A stretch of 64,000 nucleotides of DNA from Polyangia bacterium (GTDB taxonomy: Bacteria; Myxococcota_A; Polyangia; Palsa-1104). Position 1 is the stretch's first letter. Every line of letters starts with the position of its first letter. This document shows, piece after piece, positions 964 through 40,315 of the stretch. The position numbers were made by a program, and so were the translations under genes. The DNA is taken from the NCBI GenBank assembly GCA_039923495.1, contig JBDTCO010000006.1, positions 35,066 through 99,065 on the forward strand, read 5' to 3'. Under the pieces are notes generated by a model. That model was not told the origin of the DNA. It did not search any database and saw nothing but the letters and a program-made list of their open reading frames with translations.

Positions 964-2658
964 ATGAACAAGCCCTGGAAGACAGCTCTCGCGCTCTCGG
1001 CGTTGCTGATGTCGCACGCGCCACGCCTCCTTGCGTGTGGTTGCTTCGCGCCGCCCAGCCCCGCGACGCCGGTCGTGCAAGCCGGCGAGCGCATCCTGTT
1101 CGCGCAGGATGGCGCGAACGTCACCGCGTACATCCAGCTCCAGTACCAGGGGGCGGCCGCGGACTTCGGCTGGCTCGTGCCCCTGCCCTCGGTGCCGACG
1201 CTGGAGGTGGGCTCGGACGAACTCTTCACGCAGCTCCTCGCCACGACGAGCCCGTCGTACGTCCTGTCCACCACGCGCGATTTCTGTGGCGGCGGCTCGT
1301 CGACATCGGTCGGCTGCGGCGGCGCCACGAGCCTCAACAGCGCGGGGAGCGCGACCTCGGCGGACGCCGGCGCGTTCGTGTCCGACGCCGGCACCAGCTC
1401 CGGCAGCCCGCTCGTGCTCTCGTCGAGCATCGGGCCGTACGACTACGCGGTGCTCAAGGCCGACAACAAGACGACGATGCTCGACTGGCTGACGGCCAAC
1501 CACTACTACGTGCCGGACGCGACGGGCACGGCGGTGACGCCGTACATCCACCCGGGCGCGTACTTCCTCGCGCTCAAGCTCGCGTCGGGCGAGGCGGCGG
1601 GCAACGTCGTGCCGATCGTGCTGCGCTACGAGTCGGACCTGCCAATGGTGCCGATCACGCTGACGCAGGTCGGCGCGATCCCCGACATGGGCATCCTCGT
1701 GTGGCTGCTCGGCGATGCGCGCGCCATCCCGCGCAACTACTACAGCGTGGTCCTCGACGAGATGCCGGTGTGGAACGACGTCACCACGTATCCGGCCGCG
1801 GCGATCCGCGCGGTGCACGACGCACCCAAGCGCCACGCCTTCTTGACCGAGTACGCAGGCCCGAGCTCCGTGATGGCCAACCAGCTCGACTACCCCGGCC
1901 GCTTCGGCAACCTCGCGCAGGCGCGCACGCTCACGAACCCGTACGACTACCTGGGGTTCCTTCGCTACAACGGTTTCACCTACGACTCGACGCTGTTCGC
2001 CATCCTCGAGAAGTACGTCCCGGAGCCGGCGTCCGCGATAGCGCAGGGCGTCTCGGAGGCACAGTACTACGCGTCCGCGTATCAGTACCTCTCGCCCGAG
2101 GCCCTCGATGCGGGCACCACCCCCTTCGACGCGGGCGCGCTGACCGATGAGATCACGAGCCGCATCGTCGTCCCCGACCAGCAGGCGTCGAAGCTGTTCT
2201 CCTCGTACCCGTACCTGACGCGCATGTACACTGCGCTGTCGCCGGCGGACATGAACGTCGATCCGGTGTTCAGCCAGAACCCGGATCTCCCCGAGGTGCC
2301 GCTCGTCCACTCGGCGCAGCTCACGTATCCCTGCGAGGGCGATGCATGGTTGCGCACCGACTCCGGCGAAGAGGCACAGTTCCTGTCCGGCACGCTCCGC
2401 ACGAGCAAGACGTTGCCGGGCGCGCTCCGCGTGGAGACGCTGCGCGAGGAAGGCCCGCCACTCGTCGTCACCGACAACAGCGCGAGCATCACCGCCGCGC
2501 TCGGCAAGGTCAGCCACGGCAGCTCGCCGGACTCCAGCTCGCATGGCGCCGGCAGTGGCTGCGACGTGCGTAGCCGCTTCCCGCGCAGCGCGGCCGGCAC
2601 GGCGCTGCTCGTCGCGGGCGCCATTTACTTGTCGCGTCGTCGTCGGAAGGTCGCGTGA
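964..2658 (+). CDS. secreted protein with MYXO-CTERM-type C-terminal sorting signal
   Basis: AGGAG RBS at about 951-955; N-terminal signal peptide; C-terminus GSGCDVRSRF...TALLVAGAIYLSRRRRKVA (Gly-Cys motif, TM helix, basic cluster) matches the Myxococcales MYXO-CTERM pattern. Confidence 0.65.
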   Translation: MNKPWKTALALSALLMSHAPRLLACGCFAPPSPATPVVQAGERILFAQDGANVTAYIQLQYQGAAADFGWLVPLPSVPTLEVGSDELFTQLLATTSPSYVLSTTRDFCGGGSSTSVGCGGATSLNSAGSATSADAGAFVSDAGTSSGSPLVLSSSIGPYDYAVLKADNKTTMLDWLTANHYYVPDATGTAVTPYIHPGAYFLALKLASGEAAGNVVPIVLRYESDLPMVPITLTQVGAIPDMGILVWLLGDARAIPRNYYSVVLDEMPVWNDVTTYPAAAIRAVHDAPKRHAFLTEYAGPSSVMANQLDYPGRFGNLAQARTLTNPYDYLGFLRYNGFTYDSTLFAILEKYVPEPASAIAQGVSEAQYYASAYQYLSPEALDAGTTPFDAGALTDEITSRIVVPDQQASKLFSSYPYLTRMYTALSPADMNVDPVFSQNPDLPEVPLVHSAQLTYPCEGDAWLRTDSGEEAQFLSGTLRTSKTLPGALRVETLREEGPPLVVTDNSASITAALGKVSHGSSPDSSSHGAGSGCDVRSRFPRSAAGTALLVAGAIYLSRRRRKVA

Positions 2659-5426
2659 TGAAGGCGCTCGCGCTGTCGCTGCTCGTCGGGCTCTGCGCCT
2701 GCGAGGGAGCACCCCCCACGTGGTCGGCGGTGACCCCGGCCCCGCTCGCCGAGGCGCTGCTCTCGGTCGGCGGCACGAGCGCGAGCGACGTGTGGGCGGT
2801 CGGGTCCGACAAGGGCTCGGGTCCGATCGTCCTGCACTTCGATGGCAGCACCTGGTCGCGCATCGCGACCAACACACGCGGCACGCTGTGGTGGGTCCAC
2901 GCCTTTGCCGATGGCACCGTGTACGCCGCGGGCGCGGGCGCCACGATCCTGCGCTGGGACGGCACCGCGTTCTCGCGCATGACCACACCCGGACTCGCCG
3001 CAGCGACGGTGTTCGGGGTGTGGGGCCGCAGCCCTTATGACGCATATGCCGTCGGTAGCGTCTCGGGCCGCGACGGCTTCGTGTGGCACTGGGATGGGAC
3101 CACGTGGGCAGTCGTCGACGTTCCGCACGACCTGCGCGGCGACACGAGCGAGGCCCCTGGCTTCTTCAAGGTCGCGGGCGATGCGACACATGTGTTCGTC
3201 GTCGGCGCGCACGGCAACCTCTTGCAACGCGACGGGGACGGCCCGTTCTCGCCGATCGCGACGGCCACCACGGACACGCTCTACACGGTGGCCACCGATG
3301 GCGATCACCACGCAGAGGTGGGTGGCGGCGCGACGGGCGTGCTCATCGATGACGCGCGAACCTCGACCCCGGTCGACGCGGGTCTTTTGCAAGGCCTCGC
3401 GTTCGGGCCGGGCGGCGCGGCGATCGCCACCGGCGCGGACGGCGCGATCTACGAGCGCTCGTCGAGCGGGTGGGCACGTCAGCACACCGGCCTTGCGATG
3501 AACATCGAGTCGCTGCACGCCGCCTGGATCGATCCTGACGGCGGTCAGTGGGCGGTCGGTGGCAACGTGCTGTCCTCGAGCCTCGACGGCGGCGTGTTGC
3601 TCCACCGCGGCGCGACCATCGCTGGCTACGCGGAGGTGCTCCCCGACATGGGTCCGCCGTCCACCGCGTGTCCCGAGGACCAGATCGATCCCCAGCCCGA
3701 GCGCTCGATCGCGCGCCGCTGGGACGAGCAGATCCTCGGCGCGATTCGCAGGGACGTGCCGCGCCCGACCGTGCACGCGCGCAACCTCTTCCACGTGTCG
3801 GCCGCGATGTGGGACGCGTGGGCCACGTACGACACCGTGGCAGATGGTGTGTTCTTCCACGAGCGTCACGTCGGCGCGCAGGTCGACCGCGAGCAGGCGC
3901 TCAGCTACGCGGCCTATCGCCTGCTCCAGCACCGCTACACGGGACAGGTCGGCGGCGCGGTGTCCAACGCGTGCTTCGACGCGTTCTTCGCGCGGCTCGG
4001 GTACGACGCGACGATCACCACCCCCGACGGAGATGCTCCGGCCGCCATCGGCAATCGCATCGCCGCGACGATCATCGCTGCGACCGTGGACGACGGCGCG
4101 AACGAGGCGAACAACTACGCCGACGAGACGGGCTTCGTCGCCGCGAACCCTCCGCTCTTCATCGATCTGCCCGGCACGACGATGACCGCTCCGGACGAGT
4201 GGCAGCCGCTCAACCTCGCGGTGGCCGAGACGCAGAACGGCCTCCTCGTCAGCTCCGGCGTGCAGTCGTACGTGGGCTCGAACTGGGATCGCGTCACGCC
4301 GTTCTCGCTCTCGCGTCCGTCGTCGGATGTGGCGTACTTCGACACCGGTCTCACGCCGACGGCCGCGCAGCCGGAGATGAAGGACTGGCTCGTCGACGTC
4401 CTCTCGAAGCAGGCGTGGCTCGATGCGAGCGACGGCGTCACGGTCGATCTGTCACCGGGCACGCTCGGCAACGACACGCTCGGCACCAACGATGGGCATG
4501 GTCGCGCGCTCAACCCGATCACGGGCGCGCCGTACGTTGCGCAGCCTGCGCTGCGTGGAGACTTCGGTCGCGTGCTCGCGGAGTTCTGGGCCGATGGTCC
4601 GAGCTCGGAGACGCCGCCGGGCCACTGGAACGTCATCGCCAACCAGGTGACCGATAGCGCGGGGTTTGCGCGTCGGCTCGGCGGCACCGGTGCATCGCTC
4701 GAGCCGCTCGAGTGGGACGTGAAGGTCTACCTCGCGCTCAACGGCGCGGTGCACGACGCGGCGATCACGTCGTGGGGAACGAAGCGCCGCACCACGACCG
4801 CGCGGCCGATCTCGCTCATCCGCTACATGGCCGGACTCGGTCAGTCGTCGGACCCGTCGCTGCCGCACTACGATGTGAACGGCCTCCCGCTCGTGTCCGG
4901 GCTCATCGAGCTCATCACGCCGCAGAGCTGCGCGCCGGGGCAGCGTCACGCACGGCTCGCGCGCCACACAGGGGAGCTCGCGATCTTCGCGTGGCGCGGC
5001 GAGCCCGGAGATCGCGTGCACCAGACGGCCGGCATCGGCTGGGTGCGCGCGCTCGAGTGGCTGCCGTATCAGCGCCGCACGTTCGTGACGCCGGCGTTCC
5101 CCGGCTTCACGTCGGGACACAGCACGTTCAGTCGCGCGGCCGCCGAGGTGCTCACCACGCTCACCGGCAGCGAGTACTTCCCCGGCGGCCTCGGGCAGTA
5201 CATCGCCAAGCAGGGCAGCCTCAAGTTCGAGGAAGGACCGACCGCGGATGTGCACCTGCAGTGGGCCACGTACTACGACGCCGCCGATCAGGCCGGACAG
5301 TCTCGTCTGTGGGGCGGCATCCACCTCGCGTCCGACGACTTCATCGGCCGGATCACAGGCAGCCTCGCGGGCAAGGCTGCTACCGCGCTGGCGATGAAGT
5401 TCTTCGCCGGCACCGCGCTTCCGTAG
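2655..5426 (+). CDS. lipoprotein with N-terminal WxDG-repeat beta-propeller-like region and C-terminal vanadium-haloperoxidase/PAP2-type domain
   Basis: Start GTG 2655 or ATG 2658 overlaps the upstream stop (GTGATGA); signal peptide MMKALALSLLVGLCAC; repeated W-DG-T-W blocks; C-terminal motifs K-x6-RP (KRRTTTARP), PGFTSGHS and SRLWGGIHLASD fit the PAP2/vanadium haloperoxidase signature. Confidence 0.65.
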   Translation: MMKALALSLLVGLCACEGAPPTWSAVTPAPLAEALLSVGGTSASDVWAVGSDKGSGPIVLHFDGSTWSRIATNTRGTLWWVHAFADGTVYAAGAGATILRWDGTAFSRMTTPGLAAATVFGVWGRSPYDAYAVGSVSGRDGFVWHWDGTTWAVVDVPHDLRGDTSEAPGFFKVAGDATHVFVVGAHGNLLQRDGDGPFSPIATATTDTLYTVATDGDHHAEVGGGATGVLIDDARTSTPVDAGLLQGLAFGPGGAAIATGADGAIYERSSSGWARQHTGLAMNIESLHAAWIDPDGGQWAVGGNVLSSSLDGGVLLHRGATIAGYAEVLPDMGPPSTACPEDQIDPQPERSIARRWDEQILGAIRRDVPRPTVHARNLFHVSAAMWDAWATYDTVADGVFFHERHVGAQVDREQALSYAAYRLLQHRYTGQVGGAVSNACFDAFFARLGYDATITTPDGDAPAAIGNRIAATIIAATVDDGANEANNYADETGFVAANPPLFIDLPGTTMTAPDEWQPLNLAVAETQNGLLVSSGVQSYVGSNWDRVTPFSLSRPSSDVAYFDTGLTPTAAQPEMKDWLVDVLSKQAWLDASDGVTVDLSPGTLGNDTLGTNDGHGRALNPITGAPYVAQPALRGDFGRVLAEFWADGPSSETPPGHWNVIANQVTDSAGFARRLGGTGASLEPLEWDVKVYLALNGAVHDAAITSWGTKRRTTTARPISLIRYMAGLGQSSDPSLPHYDVNGLPLVSGLIELITPQSCAPGQRHARLARHTGELAIFAWRGEPGDRVHQTAGIGWVRALEWLPYQRRTFVTPAFPGFTSGHSTFSRAAAEVLTTLTGSEYFPGGLGQYIAKQGSLKFEEGPTADVHLQWATYYDAADQAGQSRLWGGIHLASDDFIGRITGSLAGKAATALAMKFFAGTALP

Positions 5427-5478
5427 CGCTACTTACCGCCGCGCTGGTACTTCGTCACCGCCGCCTCGTGGGACGATC

Positions 5479-5503
5479 GAGGGGGACGTTCCCGTTCCCC
5501 CTC
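5479..5503. terminator. GC-rich hairpin between convergent genes (candidate bidirectional terminator)
   Basis: gagggggacgttcccgttccccctc forms a 7-bp stem gaggggg/ccccctc between the stops at 5426 (+) and 5560 (-). Confidence 0.4.
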
Positions 5504-5559
5504 CAGCAGCAAAGCTGCCGGAGCCTTCCCCCACCGCGCGTTTCTCGCGCGAGTCAGCG

Positions 5560-6651
5560 CTACTTACCGCCGCGCTGGTACTTCGTCACCGCCGCCTCGT
5601 GCTCTGCCACGGTCTTCGAGAAGTAGTGCGTGCCGTCGTTCTTCGACACGAAGTACAGGTACGGCGTGTCGTCGGGCTCGATGGCCGCGAGCAGCGCGGC
5701 GCGGCCGGGGTTCGAGATGGGGCCGGGCGGCAGCCCCGTGTGCTGGTACGTGTTGTACGGGTTGTCCTTGTCGTCGAGCTGCGCCCTGCGGAGGCGGCCC
5801 TCGAAGGTCGCGCACGCGGCGCTCTTGTCCTTCGGCACGGTGCAGCCGTAGACGATGGTGGGATCGGTCTGCAGCACGTGCGGCACGAACGTCGGCAGCC
5901 GAAGGCGGTTGTAGAAGACGCCGGCGATGCGAGGGCGCTCGTCGACGGCGGCGGTCTCCTTCTCGACGAGCGACGCCATGAGCACGAGCTCGCGATCGTC
6001 CATCTTGTCGAGCTTCGCGCGCAGGGCGACGGACTTGGCGTGCGTGGCCTTGAGGGCGTCGAAGACCTCGTGCGCGCGCCTCACGAGCGCGGTCGCGATG
6101 CGCAGCGCCGACGTCCCGCGAGGGAACCTGTACGTGTCGGGGAAGAGGTAGCCCTCGAGCGTCGGGCCCGGCACCCCGAGCCGCTGCGCCACCTGCGGAT
6201 CGCGCGCGACCTTCTCGAAGTCCTCCTTCGCGCACACGCCGGCCTCGTCGAAGAGCTCCGCGACCTGCACGAGGTTCTTGCCCTCGGGCAGCGTGACGGC
6301 GACCTCCTCGACGGGGACGCCCTCGATGAGCCGCGCGAGGATCTCGGACGGCGTCATGCTCGACGACAGCACGAACTGCCCCGCCTTCACCTTCTGAGAG
6401 AGGCCGCGCTCGTTCGCGTAGAAGCGGAACCAGCTCGGGTGCGTGATGAGCTTGGAATACGCGAGCCGGCGCGCGATCACCGCGAGCGTCGTGCCGCGCT
6501 CGATGATGATCTTCGCCTCGACGGCCGGCCCCGGCATCGCGCGCGACGGATACGACAGCGCCTGGTATGCGATGGCGCCCGCACCTGCGAACAGCGCCAC
6601 GGCGCTGAGTCCGACGACGATCGCCGCCTTCTTCTGATCAGCCACGCTCAC
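5560..6651 (-). CDS. mltG: endolytic murein transglycosylase MltG (YceG family)
   Basis: 363 aa with N-terminal TM anchor and a YceG-like body; 4-nt overlap with upstream ruvX, the conserved ruvX-mltG arrangement. Confidence 0.85.
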   Translation of the reverse strand: MSVADQKKAAIVVGLSAVALFAGAGAIAYQALSYPSRAMPGPAVEAKIIIERGTTLAVIARRLAYSKLITHPSWFRFYANERGLSQKVKAGQFVLSSSMTPSEILARLIEGVPVEEVAVTLPEGKNLVQVAELFDEAGVCAKEDFEKVARDPQVAQRLGVPGPTLEGYLFPDTYRFPRGTSALRIATALVRRAHEVFDALKATHAKSVALRAKLDKMDDRELVLMASLVEKETAAVDERPRIAGVFYNRLRLPTFVPHVLQTDPTIVYGCTVPKDKSAACATFEGRLRRAQLDDKDNPYNTYQHTGLPPGPISNPGRAALLAAIEPDDTPYLYFVSKNDGTHYFSKTVAEHEAAVTKYQRGGK

Positions 6652-10063: not shown

Positions 10064-11119
<1,056 letters not shown>

Positions 11120-37676: not shown

Positions 37677-38438
37677 TCAGGCCTTCTTGCGGTCGATCGC
37701 GAACGGCGAGAAGGCCTGGCACACCGGCATGAGCTGCATGCCGTTCACGTTCATGTGCGCGGGCAGCGTCGTGACCCACAGCACCGCCTCGGCGATGTCC
37801 TCCGACGTGAGCGGCTGCGTCCCCTCGTAGACCTTGTCCGCACGCGCCTGATCGCCGCCGAAGCGCACCGTCGAGAACTCGGTGCCGCCGCACAGGCCGG
37901 GCTCGAGGTTGGTGACGCGCACCGGGGTGCCGAGCAGGTCCGCGCGCAGGTTGAGGCTGAACTGATCCACGAAGGCCTTCGTCGCGCCGTACACGTTGCC
38001 GCCTGGATACGGATAGCGCCCCGCGACGGAGCCGATGTTCACGACGTGGCCGCGACCGCGCTCGACCATGCCGGGCAGGAGCGCGCGCGTGACGTACGCC
38101 AGGCCCTTGACGTTGGTGTCGATCATGCGGTCCCAGTCGTCGAGGTCGGCCTCGTGCGCCCTGGCGAGCCCGAGCCCGAGGCCGGCGTTGTTGACGAGCA
38201 CGTCGACGGCTGCGAACTCCGCGGGCAGCGAGTCGACACACGCGCTCACGCCTGCGCGATCACGCACGTCGAGCACCCGCGCAAGGAGGTTCGGCCCGAG
38301 CTGTCGGGCGAGCTCGTCGAGGCGATCTTGCCTGCGACCGGTGGCGACGACTCGGTCGCCGCGATCGATGAAGCGCTTCGCGATCGCGGTGCCGAAGCCC
38401 GCGGTGGCACCGGTGACGAAGACGGTGAGATGGCTCAT
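37677..38438 (-). CDS. short-chain dehydrogenase/reductase (SDR) family oxidoreductase
   Basis: Internal Met MSHLTVFVTGATAGFG (TGxxxGxG), NNAG, catalytic YxxxK region (YGATKAF). Confidence 0.8.
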   Translation of the reverse strand: MSHLTVFVTGATAGFGTAIAKRFIDRGDRVVATGRRQDRLDELARQLGPNLLARVLDVRDRAGVSACVDSLPAEFAAVDVLVNNAGLGLGLARAHEADLDDWDRMIDTNVKGLAYVTRALLPGMVERGRGHVVNIGSVAGRYPYPGGNVYGATKAFVDQFSLNLRADLLGTPVRVTNLEPGLCGGTEFSTVRFGGDQARADKVYEGTQPLTSEDIAEAVLWVTTLPAHMNVNGMQLMPVCQAFSPFAIDRKKA

Positions 38439-38484
38439 CCGAGTCGAGTAGCACAGGTCGGCGCAGGAGCGGCGACCGGCTGGT

Positions 38485-38690
38485 GCGAGGTCAGAACGCG
38501 CGCGAGCAACGCGCGGAGGGAGACGTGAGGTCAGAACGCGCGCGAGCAACGCGCGGAGGGAGACGTGAGGTCAGAACGCGCGCGAGCAACGCGCGGAGGG
38601 AGGCGTGAGGTCAGAACGCGCGCGAGCAACGCGCGGAGGGAGGCGTGAGGTCAGAACGCGCGCGAGCAACGCGCGGAGGGAGGGGAGGCT
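38485..38690. repeat. five tandem copies of a 40-bp unit (ggtcagaacgcgcgcgagcaacgcgcggagggaRRcgtga), each with an internal cgcgcg-agcaa-cgcgcg palindrome
   Basis: Copies begin near 38488, 38528, 38568, 38608 and 38648; the first two are identical, copies 3-4 differ by one base (gagac to gaggc), copy 5 diverges at its end; intergenic. Confidence 0.85.
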
Positions 38691-38766
38691 CATCGGGCTC
38701 CGCCCGATGAGGGGAGGCGGGAAGGCCGCCCCCTAAAAGAAGCGGAGGCGGAAGGCCGCCCCCTAA
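38689..38766. repeat. 10-bp-arm hairpin (ctcatcgggc tcc gcccgatgag) followed by a duplicated 17-mer ggaaggccgccccctaa at the 3' end of the DUF2237 gene
   Basis: Arms at 38689-38698 and 38702-38711; 17-mer at about 38720-38736 and 38750-38766; candidate terminator. Confidence 0.55.
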
Positions 38767-39140
38767 TTAATATCCACCGCGTGGGCCTTGAGCGCCTCGA
38801 GCGACACGATGTCGAGCGTGTCGACGTGCGTCGCGGCGATGAAGACCTTAGGCGCCTTGCCGGCGTCGTACGCCTCTTTCCAGCGCGCGGCGCAGAGGCA
38901 CCACTTGTCGCCGGGCTTGAGGCCCGCGAAGCCGTGCGCGGGCGCGGCCGTCGAGAGGTCGTTGCCGCGCGCGCGGCTGTACGCGAGGAAGTCCTCGGTC
39001 ACCTGCACGCAGACGGTGTGGACGCCGCGATCGGTGTCGTCGGTGTCGCAGCAGCCGTTGCGGAAGTAGCCGGTCTTGGGGCGCTCGCTGCACATCGCGA
39101 GCGGTGTGCCGAGGACGTTGAGCGAGGGTCGCATGCACAC
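38763..39140 (-). CDS. DUF2237-family small Cys-rich protein
   Basis: LGTPLAMCSERPKTGYFRNGCCDTDDTDRGVHTVCVQVTEDFLAYSRARGNDLSTAAPAHGFAGLKPGDKWCLCAARWKEAY matches the DUF2237 pattern. Confidence 0.6.
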   Translation of the reverse strand: MCMRPSLNVLGTPLAMCSERPKTGYFRNGCCDTDDTDRGVHTVCVQVTEDFLAYSRARGNDLSTAAPAHGFAGLKPGDKWCLCAARWKEAYDAGKAPKVFIAATHVDTLDIVSLEALKAHAVDIN

Positions 39141-39163
39141 CTCCTACGCCAACGAGGTGTGCC

Positions 39164-40315
39164 TTACAACCCTGCGTCCACTGTCACAGGCGGGCACGAG
39201 GCGACGTCGGTGGAGGTGCACACCCCCGGACCGACGCCGAGATCGTCGCCATACGTCGAGCACACGAGCCCGGGCTCGCACAGGGTCGCGGCCGCGCCGC
39301 TGCAGCTGCCGGCGCGTGGGTGCAGCCAGTCGCACACCTGCGTCAGGCTGCACCCCAGCCCCGCCGCACACGGGGTGGTCACGCAGCGCTCGGCGGCGTA
39401 CGGCACGAACGAGGGGGCGGTGCACACGCCGCCTTCGCAGGTCTGGCTCCGAGGACAGCCGCTCACGCCCGTCGAGCTGCACGACGAGCCGACGTCGCCC
39501 CAGTCGGTGCACGTGCCGGTCGTGCCGCCGACGAGCCCCAGGCACGCGAGACCATCCTGGCAGGCGAGCGCGGTGTCGCACGCAACACCCCTTTGCAGCT
39601 GCTTCGTGCAGACGTGCGCGGCGGGATCGCAGTAGCGGCCGCTCTTGCACGGCTCGCTACCATCGCACGTCGTGCCGTCGTCGAGGATGATGGGATCGGC
39701 GCACGTGCCGTCGACGCACACGAAGCCGATGGCGCACGCGACGTCGTCACTGCACGCCTTGCCTCGGGCCCGCTTCGGCTGGCAGGTGCCGCTGCACCAC
39801 GCGACGGTGGGATCACAGGTGTGCTCGACATCGCTGGTGCCGCACGGGGCGCCATAGCTCGCGTAGGCGACGCACGTGCCTTTGCACGACGGTTCGTGCA
39901 CGCAGACTCCGCCCTCGCACTCGAGGTCGGACGTGCATAGCGCTCCCACCTGGGCGCGCGGCCGTACGACCACATCGCAGATGCGGCCCCGCTTTCGCGC
40001 GGCCAGCACGGGATCGCACGGCGAGCGCTCGACCGCATCGAGGCAGCTCTGCGCATCGACCGAGTCGTAGCCGAGGCGATGCTCGTCGATGGACGCAGGC
40101 AGATCGAGCGCGTCGGGTGCCGCGCGATCGGCGGCAGCGTCATGCAGGATGGCCAGCACGCCGTCGGTGCCGCACGAGGCGCGCTCGCCGCGTCCCGCCT
40201 GGCCGCAGCGCCTCGCCCATGCGCAGCTCGAGTCGACGAGCTGGTTGCGAAAAGCCTCGTAGCGCCCCGGCCCGCAGGCGCTCGCGAGCAGCAGCACGAC
40301 GAACGCGGCGCGCAT
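39164..40315 (-). CDS. large Cys-rich secreted lipoprotein
   Basis: Internal Met MRAAFVVLLLASACG lipobox; about 60 Cys in repeated C..G.C/CxDG.C modules over 384 aa. Confidence 0.55.
   Translation of the reverse strand: MRAAFVVLLLASACGPGRYEAFRNQLVDSSCAWARRCGQAGRGERASCGTDGVLAILHDAAADRAAPDALDLPASIDEHRLGYDSVDAQSCLDAVERSPCDPVLAARKRGRICDVVVRPRAQVGALCTSDLECEGGVCVHEPSCKGTCVAYASYGAPCGTSDVEHTCDPTVAWCSGTCQPKRARGKACSDDVACAIGFVCVDGTCADPIILDDGTTCDGSEPCKSGRYCDPAAHVCTKQLQRGVACDTALACQDGLACLGLVGGTTGTCTDWGDVGSSCSSTGVSGCPRSQTCEGGVCTAPSFVPYAAERCVTTPCAAGLGCSLTQVCDWLHPRAGSCSGAAATLCEPGLVCSTYGDDLGVGPGVCTSTDVASCPPVTVDAGL

Follow-up and report, generated by a model that had tools for sequence, protein, structure and literature searches.

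A tandem array between the DUF2237 and SDR genes of a Polyangia bacterium, probably an expanded module of a dispersed three-hairpin repeat element

Introduction

A tandem array lying between two genes raises the question of whether it serves its neighbors or is simply carried along with them. Herein, we address this question for a five-copy 40-bp array located between a DUF2237 gene and an SDR gene of a Polyangia bacterium. The array lies in a 64-kb stretch of DNA, which was analysed as a whole and is referred to as the window. An earlier note on this DNA had suggested that the array is an iterated regulator-binding array, a REP-like element, or a source of slipped-strand phase variation of the SDR promoter. 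Enterobacteria, pneumococci and mycobacteria all have small interspersed palindromic repeats whose tandem modules vary, and these have been described in detail. No example from Polyangia or Myxococcota is described in Rfam or in the literature that we searched, which also gave no relevant description of REP-like elements in myxobacteria.

Results

The array and its units

The DUF2237-SDR spacer in the window is 324 bp long. The following features make up the spacer and its flanks:

37677..38438, minus strand: SDR gene (YdfG-like 3-hydroxy acid dehydrogenase), downstream of the insert; Pfam adh_short, E = 4.8e-51
38439..38486, minus strand: stretch from the array to SDR, 48 nt up to the SDR ATG at 38438
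38487..38683, minus strand: tandem array with the unit TCACGYCTCCCTCC-GCGCGTTGCTCGCGCGCG-TTCTGACC, that is, hairpin h3 plus a C-rich spacer
38499-38515, 38539-38555, 38579-38595, 38619-38635 and 38659-38675: the five h3 hairpins, CGCGCG-N5-CGCGCG, exact matches
38689..38711: hairpin h2, CTCATCGGGC-TCC-GCCCGATGAG, with 10-bp arms and a 3-nt loop; -11.5 kcal/mol, z = -4.1
38712..38736, minus strand: proximal hairpin h1, GGGGGCGGCCTTCCCGCCTCCCC; it holds the first 17-mer and aligns with h1 of the other copies
38734..38766, minus strand: distal duplicate of hairpin h1; it holds the second 17-mer and the TAG stop of DUF2237
38763..39134, minus strand: DUF2237 gene, upstream of the insert; Pfam PF09996, E = 5.5e-53

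Tandem Repeats Finder reported a period-40 array of 4.9 copies at 38487..38683 (99% matches, score 380), by far the strongest tandem array of the 64-kb window. The window has five exact copies of a 33-nt core, GGTCAGAACGCGCGCGAGCAACGCGCGGAGGGA, spaced 40 bp apart (starts at 38489, 38529, 38569, 38609 and 38649), and no others; none of 100 shuffles matched it. The 40-bp units differ at one position only, where the first two have A and the next two have G, and the fifth unit ends after 35 nt. The five copies of the earlier note were thus recovered, with a single variable position, although the count of five comes from one MAG assembly only. The near-identity of the units points to a recent tandem expansion, as the earlier note had proposed, and so do the arrays of relatives, which differ from it at this site.

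Each unit carries the CGCGCG-AGCAA-CGCGCG stem-loop that had been noticed before, with a 6-bp stem of about -9 kcal/mol. Owing to the GC-rich background, the z values of the unit hairpins reach only -1.4 to -1.8. The array region folds better than its shuffles (z = -3.8), and a covariance model of the element, described below, recognises h3 repeatedly. The earlier view that the array is not coding also holds: no frame is open throughout, ORFs across the array do not exceed 43 aa, and the one longer frame is solely a TTG extension of SDR, which is unsupported. Each 40-bp unit has a TGA in one frame, and since 40 is not a multiple of 3, the reading frame rotates along the array. Spacer RNA read from the minus strand shows a C/G ratio of ~1.9 over ~280 nt, compared with ~1.0-1.3 in the flanking genes, and only 5% of it is A.

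The remainder of the spacer

Since both flanking genes are on the minus strand, the array is intercistronic, with DUF2237 upstream and SDR downstream of it. The earlier note had placed the array upstream of SDR, which is correct, but the distance to the gene is 48 nt rather than 47. Read along the minus strand, the spacer consists of a terminator-like h1 with a T run, a second h1, h2 flanked by CCTCCCC, and five repetitions of the C-rich spacer with h3.

Hairpin h2, the 10-bp-arm hairpin of the earlier note, is among just five perfect stems of at least 9 bp in the 64 kb. It is also the best-conserved core of the element family, CCCTCATCGGGC-RGA-GCCCGATGAG-CCTCCCC (core sequence CCCTCATCGGGCRGAGCCCGATGAGCCTCCCC), and alignments show it to be kept in contigs L004, L008, L010, L011, L031 and L063-65. 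The 17-mer GGAAGGCCGCCCCCTAA, correctly described as duplicated, has exactly two copies (38720-38736 and 38750-38766), the second of which contains the DUF2237 stop, a minus-strand TAG at 38763-38765. The distal h1 consists of an 8-bp GC-rich stem followed by GCTTCTTTTA and has the look of an intrinsic terminator placed directly after DUF2237 (38763-38744 plus GCTTCTTTTA). It is the sole terminator-like site in 38300-38900; h2 and h3 have no U tract.

The 48 nt between the array and SDR have no visible Shine-Dalgarno motif and no similarity to the 3' end of DUF2237 or to the empty junction described below. Their SDR-proximal part, CCTGTG-TA-TCGAC-CGGATGAGCCA, is common to L010 and L011 in the alignment. 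A promoter scan of 38300-38900 found no sigma-70-like site on either strand, and none for SDR. With no promoter-like site found and units of 40 bp, classical slipped-strand phase variation of the SDR promoter is unlikely.

The DUF2237 protein is identical on Logan contig L001, and the SDR protein is 100% identical to a record named as belonging to the MAG of a Polyangia bacterium. No independent contig on the SDR side of the array was returned by exact-protein look-ups with SDR in its 253-aa form, P0121, the TTG-extended form of 290 aa, and the neighboring protein of 155 aa, and P0257, a Polyangia acyltransferase, had no exact-protein record.

The same junction in relatives

Orthologous loci were reached via homologues of the DUF2237 and SDR proteins. 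Among them, two outgroup lineages have an empty junction, and the closest relatives of the window have a filled one. Only 2 bp separate the DUF2237 stop from the SDR start in L012, L013 and L014 (Myxococcales MAG GFS_3369 and two ENA assemblies), and 3 bp do so in a JGI contig (L058). The filled junction of L010 and L011 is 205 bp long and holds h1, h2 and h3 together with ~2.5 degenerate h3-like units. In L008 the spacer is at least 262 bp long and is occupied by a 56-bp h1+h2 unit in at least 4.6 copies of 98% identity; these are lower bounds, as the contig stops inside the array. The L008 array follows the same DUF2237 stop codon, and its DUF2237 protein is 98% identical to that of the window, where the layout is two copies of h1, one of h2 and five of h3. 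The copy-number comparison among relatives that the earlier note had proposed thus revealed differences in both the number and the identity of the repeated unit, with ~2.5 degenerate h3 units in L010/L011 and a 56-bp unit instead in L008. Variation of array length between lineages is real.

At the DNA level, DUF2237 of the window, L008 and L010 group together with 93-96% identity, while identity to L012 is 86-88% and to L058 ~80%. This grouping makes the insert a shared derived character of the clade to which the window belongs. Judged from sequence, the empty and filled sites establish that the element inserted into the DUF2237-SDR junction. Within the clade, repeat layouts differ between lineages whose DUF2237 genes have 93-96% DNA identity; the sequence-identical L001 ends inside h2. 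In all, five independent contigs end in or just past the element (L001, L004, L008, L009 and L011). At the main locus there is no long flanking direct repeat and no relic of the DUF2237 3' end above chance.

A dispersed family with three hairpins

The 40-mer is one part of a larger element, namely its h3 and C-rich spacer. The family unit is ~85-95 bp long and contains three different GC-rich hairpins, ordered h1, h2, C-rich spacer and h3 on the C-rich strand. The three are distinct palindromes in series, not inverted copies of one sequence. A full h1-h2-h3 copy, 90-96% identical to that of the window, lies directly after tRNA-Val in MAG GFS_3369 (L004). This is the genome in which the DUF2237-SDR junction is empty, the element being found after tRNA-Val instead. 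The tRNA-Val copy is also present in three further assemblies of that species (L063-65). JGI contig L031 has two inverted copies that have the h2 core in common and differ in their h1 and h3 stems, and a Kofleriaceae MAG (L005) has an h3-bearing relative of the element. Hosts of the family proposed here are a Polyangia MAG, an unclassified 'Myxococcales' MAG and the Kofleriaceae MAG.

RNAalifold recovered the three hairpins from eight copies, and all copies of the element fold with z between -2.8 and -4.9. A covariance model, R1, was built from eight aligned copies. Element copies occupy two loci in the 64 kb, and none was found elsewhere in ~190 kb of related loci. All are intergenic, and they lie in both orientations relative to the neighboring genes. 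No terminal inverted repeats are visible in the element alignments. Rfam gave no match at the gathering threshold across the whole window, and chance-level matches only at E up to 10 in 37900-39400; a tRNA scan of the window found none.

The h3 21-mer was scanned against 185,579 species representatives, one genome per species. Six exact matches were obtained, just two of them in relevant genomes; in MAG GFS_3369 the 21-mer has one match, which led to the copy after tRNA-Val. The matches in Streptomyces (two), Dermatophilaceae and Halobellus were provisionally taken as chance. A metagenome scan with the h2 19-mer gave 43 loci, mostly in apparent coding sequence. A recurrent group among them represents the LIGQSP codons of sigma-54 activators rather than family members, and L031 and, weakly, L022 are the only real members. 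The h3 and h2 patterns had no matches in viral contigs.

The element has dispersed to unrelated loci, and both its three-hairpin architecture and its lineage-specific arrays are established. Of the suggestions made earlier, the REP-like option is the one borne out, as the h3 module recurs at 5471-5555 of the window, after tRNA-Val and on other contigs. The earlier note had held that membership in a dispersed REP family with no local function would overturn its reading; of these two properties, it is the dispersal that was found.

The second copy in the window

A second locus of the window provides a diverged copy, with two further features:

5471..5555, plus strand: second, diverged three-hairpin copy, between the convergent genes 2655..5426 (plus strand) and 5560..6651 (minus strand)
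5425-5470 and 5556-5601: perfect 46-nt direct repeat flanking the second copy, 100% identical, spacing 131

Model R1 matched this copy over its full length at 5474..5564 (52 bits, E ~6e-11), also with filters off. Its h3, CGCGCGTTTCTCGCGCG, is one mismatch away from the array hairpin. Its h2 is wholly different in sequence, and a hairpin is still found at the same position. The copy folds as three hairpins with z = -4.5. The 46-nt repeat duplicates the 3' end of the minus-strand gene 5560..6651. The genes around this copy are a 923-aa gene and an MltG-like gene.

The family is associated with tandem duplications of several periods. The main locus of the window has a 40-bp period in five copies and a 30-bp period (h1) in two. 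L008 has a 56-bp period in at least 4.6 copies, and window positions 5425-5601 form a 131-bp period in 1.35 copies. In L005, a duplication of 181-190 bp, present twice, comprises the 3' end of a gene together with the element.

Discussion

Proposed origin of the array

The reading that we consider likely is that the array arose from module h3 of a mosaic element that is low in copy number and resembles REP, BOX and MIRU, the module having expanded after the element was inserted between two formerly abutting genes. The ancestor of the window's clade would have acquired the element at a junction where the genes were 2-3 bp apart, and before that the DUF2237-SDR pair was probably translationally coupled. 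A single insertion would then have been followed by lineage-specific tandem duplication of individual modules. In the window, the h3 module would have grown to five copies and h1 to two. Expansion most likely proceeded via replication slippage or unequal recombination, for which the stable hairpins, together with short direct repeats of the CCTCC type on either side of h3, may have served as starting points.

The element is probably a largely selfish or neutral passenger. Its presence would uncouple SDR from the upstream operon. The terminator-like h1, the hairpins in series and a C-rich, G-poor stretch of RNA of ~200 nt, a possible site of Rho loading, could reduce or set the transcription that reaches SDR, and this transcription could depend on array length. 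From sequence, we infer that the element is mobile. As terminal inverted repeats and short target-site duplications were not identified, the case for mobility comes from the empty and filled sites only. Copying between loci could have occurred by recombination rather than transposition. Among the points against this origin is the density of copies in the sequences covered, which is far below that of classical REP, BOX or MIRU.

A bolder reading, possible but doubtful, is that the element belongs to an undescribed family of small mobile or copy-pasted Myxococcota elements. Such elements would insert with a target duplication of tens of bases, rebuild the gene end, and then seed duplications that rewire operons. 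Evidence for this route comes from two duplications, the perfect 46-nt repeat at 5425-5601 and, in L005, the 181 bp made up of a gene end and the element. The site of the second copy would then have held, before insertion, one 46-nt copy with abutting stop codons (TAGCGCTA).

Function or mutational bias

Next, we consider whether the array was shaped by selection rather than by expansion of an inserted module. It could be an adaptive contingency locus, in which copy number tunes or switches SDR, the array serving either as an intercistronic attenuator (through hairpins and C-rich RNA that loads Rho) or as an enhancer whose effect depends on length; heritable, reversible variation would come from slippage. 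Several observations fit: the three closest lineages have three different arrays at the site, the minus-strand spacer RNA is rich in C relative to the flanking genes, a terminator-like hairpin directly follows DUF2237, and expression is correlated with length at the mycobacterial rnc-fpg1 VNTR (PMC2734929). However, h3 is amplified in the window but h1+h2 in L008, a difference that speaks against selection for a single functional unit, and 40-bp units are unlike classical phase-variation tracts. Moreover, the family duplicates at unrelated loci too. Taken with the differing modules, this fits a mutational bias better than locus-specific selection, and we consider a contingency locus unlikely.

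An operator or iteron array for an SDR regulator, with CGCGCG-N5-CGCGCG as the recognition site, is another reading, suggested by five identical palindromes at even spacing, 48 nt upstream of SDR. This corresponds to the iterated regulator-binding array of the earlier note, and the comparative evidence weighs against it. Together with its flanks, this palindrome is also found after tRNA-Val in a related genome, and it lies between the unrelated convergent genes of the window as well, so that both loci have nothing to do with SDR. Relatives with an 88-89% identical SDR have no array or degenerate units only, L008 amplifies other modules in its place, and no regulator gene is adjacent. A palindrome at unrelated loci and an array that is absent or different in close relatives make a dedicated operator array very unlikely.

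The array might instead have been inflated by the assembly, with a true locus of one or two units, since the window comes from a MAG and several short-read contigs break at the element. However, independently assembled relatives have arrays at this site too. Tandem repeats tend to be collapsed, not expanded, during assembly. In addition, the variant order A, A, G, G limits the longest perfectly periodic stretch to ~120 nt, which large k-mers should resolve, and we regard an artefact as highly improbable.

A plus-strand small RNA that exposes single-stranded GGA/GGAGG between hairpins, as a CsrB/RsmZ-like sponge for a protein or for ribosomes, would account for units made of a hairpin and then GGAGGGAGG and for a region that folds better than its shuffles, but with no promoter-like site on either strand, no Rfam match, no T-rich terminator on the plus strand, family copies in both orientations and no array in relatives, it is hardly credible. 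We ruled out a CRISPR array (the units abut without spacers), a coding repeat (no open frame), a retron (no adjacent reverse transcriptase) and a riboswitch (no Rfam match).

Likeness to known repeats

The inserted element with its expanded h3 module was compared with four kinds of bacterial repeat. The first comprises the MIRU-VNTR and ETR loci of mycobacteria. MIRUs reportedly overlap stop and start codons, with units that carry a small ORF continuous with the flanking codons. The element described here has no small ORF that reads through, and only the DUF2237 stop lies within a repeat. There are also several likenesses. MIRU-VNTR/ETR loci such as ETR-F/VNTR3239 (rnc-fpg1) likewise consist of head-to-tail units of 40-100 bp in a high-GC genome, their layout likewise differs between close lineages, and the repeat likewise abuts or overlaps a flanking stop codon. 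They also lie between same-strand operon genes, with repeat-free relatives in which the spacer is a few bp long (PMC2734929). In the M. tuberculosis complex, the rnc-fpg1 spacer holds VNTR repeats of 279-358 bp, compared with 1-6 bp in many non-MTC mycobacteria and 20-54 bp in M. avium, M. a. paratuberculosis and M. leprae, and repeat length correlates with downstream expression (PMC2734929). MIRUs are not hairpin-based, whereas the 40-bp unit forms part of a palindromic element with three hairpins, and H37Rv has 41 MIRU loci versus two loci in the 64-kb window. Phylum and unit architecture differ too, and the likeness is read as one of analogy, not homology.

The pneumococcal BOX element, boxA-(boxB)n-boxC, is likewise a modular interspersed repeat in which one module varies in tandem: the boxB module is present in variable number, the length of BOX varies between strains, and slippage or unequal crossover has been proposed (PMC3049150). 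Module variation of this type is seen here, with five copies of h3 in the window, ~2.5 in L010 and one in L004, and with at least 4.6 copies of h1+h2 in L008. The amplified module folds alone, so its number can change while the rest of the structure is undisturbed. BOX differs in that it has no sequence relation to the element and amplifies its middle module, while here it is the end (h3) or the front (h1+h2, in L008) that is amplified. BOX also has terminal inverted repeats, short target duplications and more than 100 copies per genome, none of which is seen for the present element in the sequence covered.

BIMEs are extragenic palindromes that combine motifs in mosaic fashion. The element shares with REP/BIME a makeup of GC-rich extragenic palindromes, mostly at gene 3' ends or between convergent genes, mosaic combinations of motifs, both orientations, and possible roles as mRNA 3'-end stabiliser or terminator. 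It differs from REP in having no conserved GTAG-type head and in not being an inverted pair of identical REPs. REPs number tens to hundreds per genome, compared with two copies in 64 kb here, and the 46-nt direct repeat that flanks one copy is not a REP feature. REPINs are inverted REP pairs that form one long hairpin and are mobilised by RAYT (PMC3337134, PMC3116915).

SPRITE, a pneumococcal interspersed repeat, resembles a Rho-independent terminator and lies close to gene 3' ends (PMC3049150). One h1 copy here is likewise terminator-like. However, SPRITE has one long AT-rich stem and a U tract; the present element has three short GC stems, and its U tract, unlike that of SPRITE, is confined to the junction between two h1 copies.

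Neither its sequence nor the stricter criteria place the element within MIRU-VNTR, BOX or REP/BIME. It is a new example of a familiar kind of repeat, with no new mechanism, and the current understanding of how such repeats work is unchanged. The value of the locus lies in the natural series that it provides, from empty through filled junctions to three expansions that all differ, in which an element splits a tight, probably coupled gene pair and then diversifies fast. If array length does tune SDR, the array would join the mycobacterial rnc-fpg1 VNTR as a second minisatellite that sets how strongly a bacterial gene is expressed. The elements also break short-read assemblies of these MAGs, and they could serve as strain markers.

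Duplications and contig ends at element copies

The second copy of the three-hairpin element in the window lies between the two copies of a direct repeat.

Window 5471-5555: second three-hairpin element copy, with a perfect 46-nt direct repeat on either side (whole structure, 5425-5601)

The 46-nt repeat is the duplicated 3' end of a minus-strand MltG/YceG-like gene, and its start falls within the TAG codon that terminates the convergent 923-aa gene. In the ancestral arrangement, 2 nt would have separated the two stop codons (TAGCGCTA). The present arrangement suggests either that the element inserted and duplicated a very long stretch of its target, or that the segment was tandemly duplicated in place.

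Tandem duplications were also observed in other genomes. Past the same DUF2237 stop codon, where the window has its 40-bp h3 array, the close relative L008 (ENA ERZ27272721 k141_1209469, 10379-10634) has a 56-bp tandem array whose unit is composed of the h1 and h2 modules. Its copies are 98% identical and number 4.6 or more, the contig ending within the array. In a Kofleriaceae MAG (L005, CAXNMK010000015.1, 4884-5253), a tandem duplication of 181-190 bp repeats the final ~100 bp of a gene together with a hairpin element carrying the same CGCGCGAGCAACGCGCGGAGG.

Five independent short-read contigs end inside the element or at most ~100 bp away from it: L008, L009, L001 (identical DUF2237 protein), L004 (MAG GFS_3369) and L011 (a close relative with a filled DUF2237-SDR junction). 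The three-hairpin element thus interrupts assembly of these MAGs and metagenomes.

Discordant divergence around the element

At the tRNA-Val locus, the elements of L004 (5468-5560) and of a further assembly, L063 (10917-11004), are 85% identical, while their upstream flanks are 98% identical. The two assemblies appear to be one species; the L004 element is nearer to the DUF2237-SDR copy of the window (90%) than to that of L063 (85%). Gene conversion among element copies could explain this mismatch, as could a chimeric contig end.

The two sides of the DUF2237-SDR spacer (window 37677-39134) were likewise discordant when compared with L010, whose junction is filled, and L012, whose junction is empty. 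DNA identity to the window was 93.3% (L010) and 86.6% (L012) for DUF2237, and 87.6% and 88.0%, respectively, for SDR; gene content downstream of SDR also differs among these genomes. The repeat spacer may be a recombination breakpoint.

SDR start region and coding matches

Directly 5' of the SDR ATG, ~30 nt are common to the window (38439-38470) and L010/L011 (L010 2262-2297), reading CCTGTG-TA-TCGAC-CGGATGAGCCA. No Shine-Dalgarno motif was found in these ~30 nt in either. The TGTGMTAYT upstream of the ATG could be a candidate extended -10 of a short-leader transcript.

The h2 19-mer, CCTCATCGGGCRGAGCCCG, doubles as code for the LIGQSP motif of sigma-54 enhancer-binding proteins, and hence a coding-sequence group recurs among its metagenome matches.

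L016, L021, L026, L038, L039, L043, L053, L054, L056 and others: LIGQSP-type metagenome matches, h2 19-mer scan
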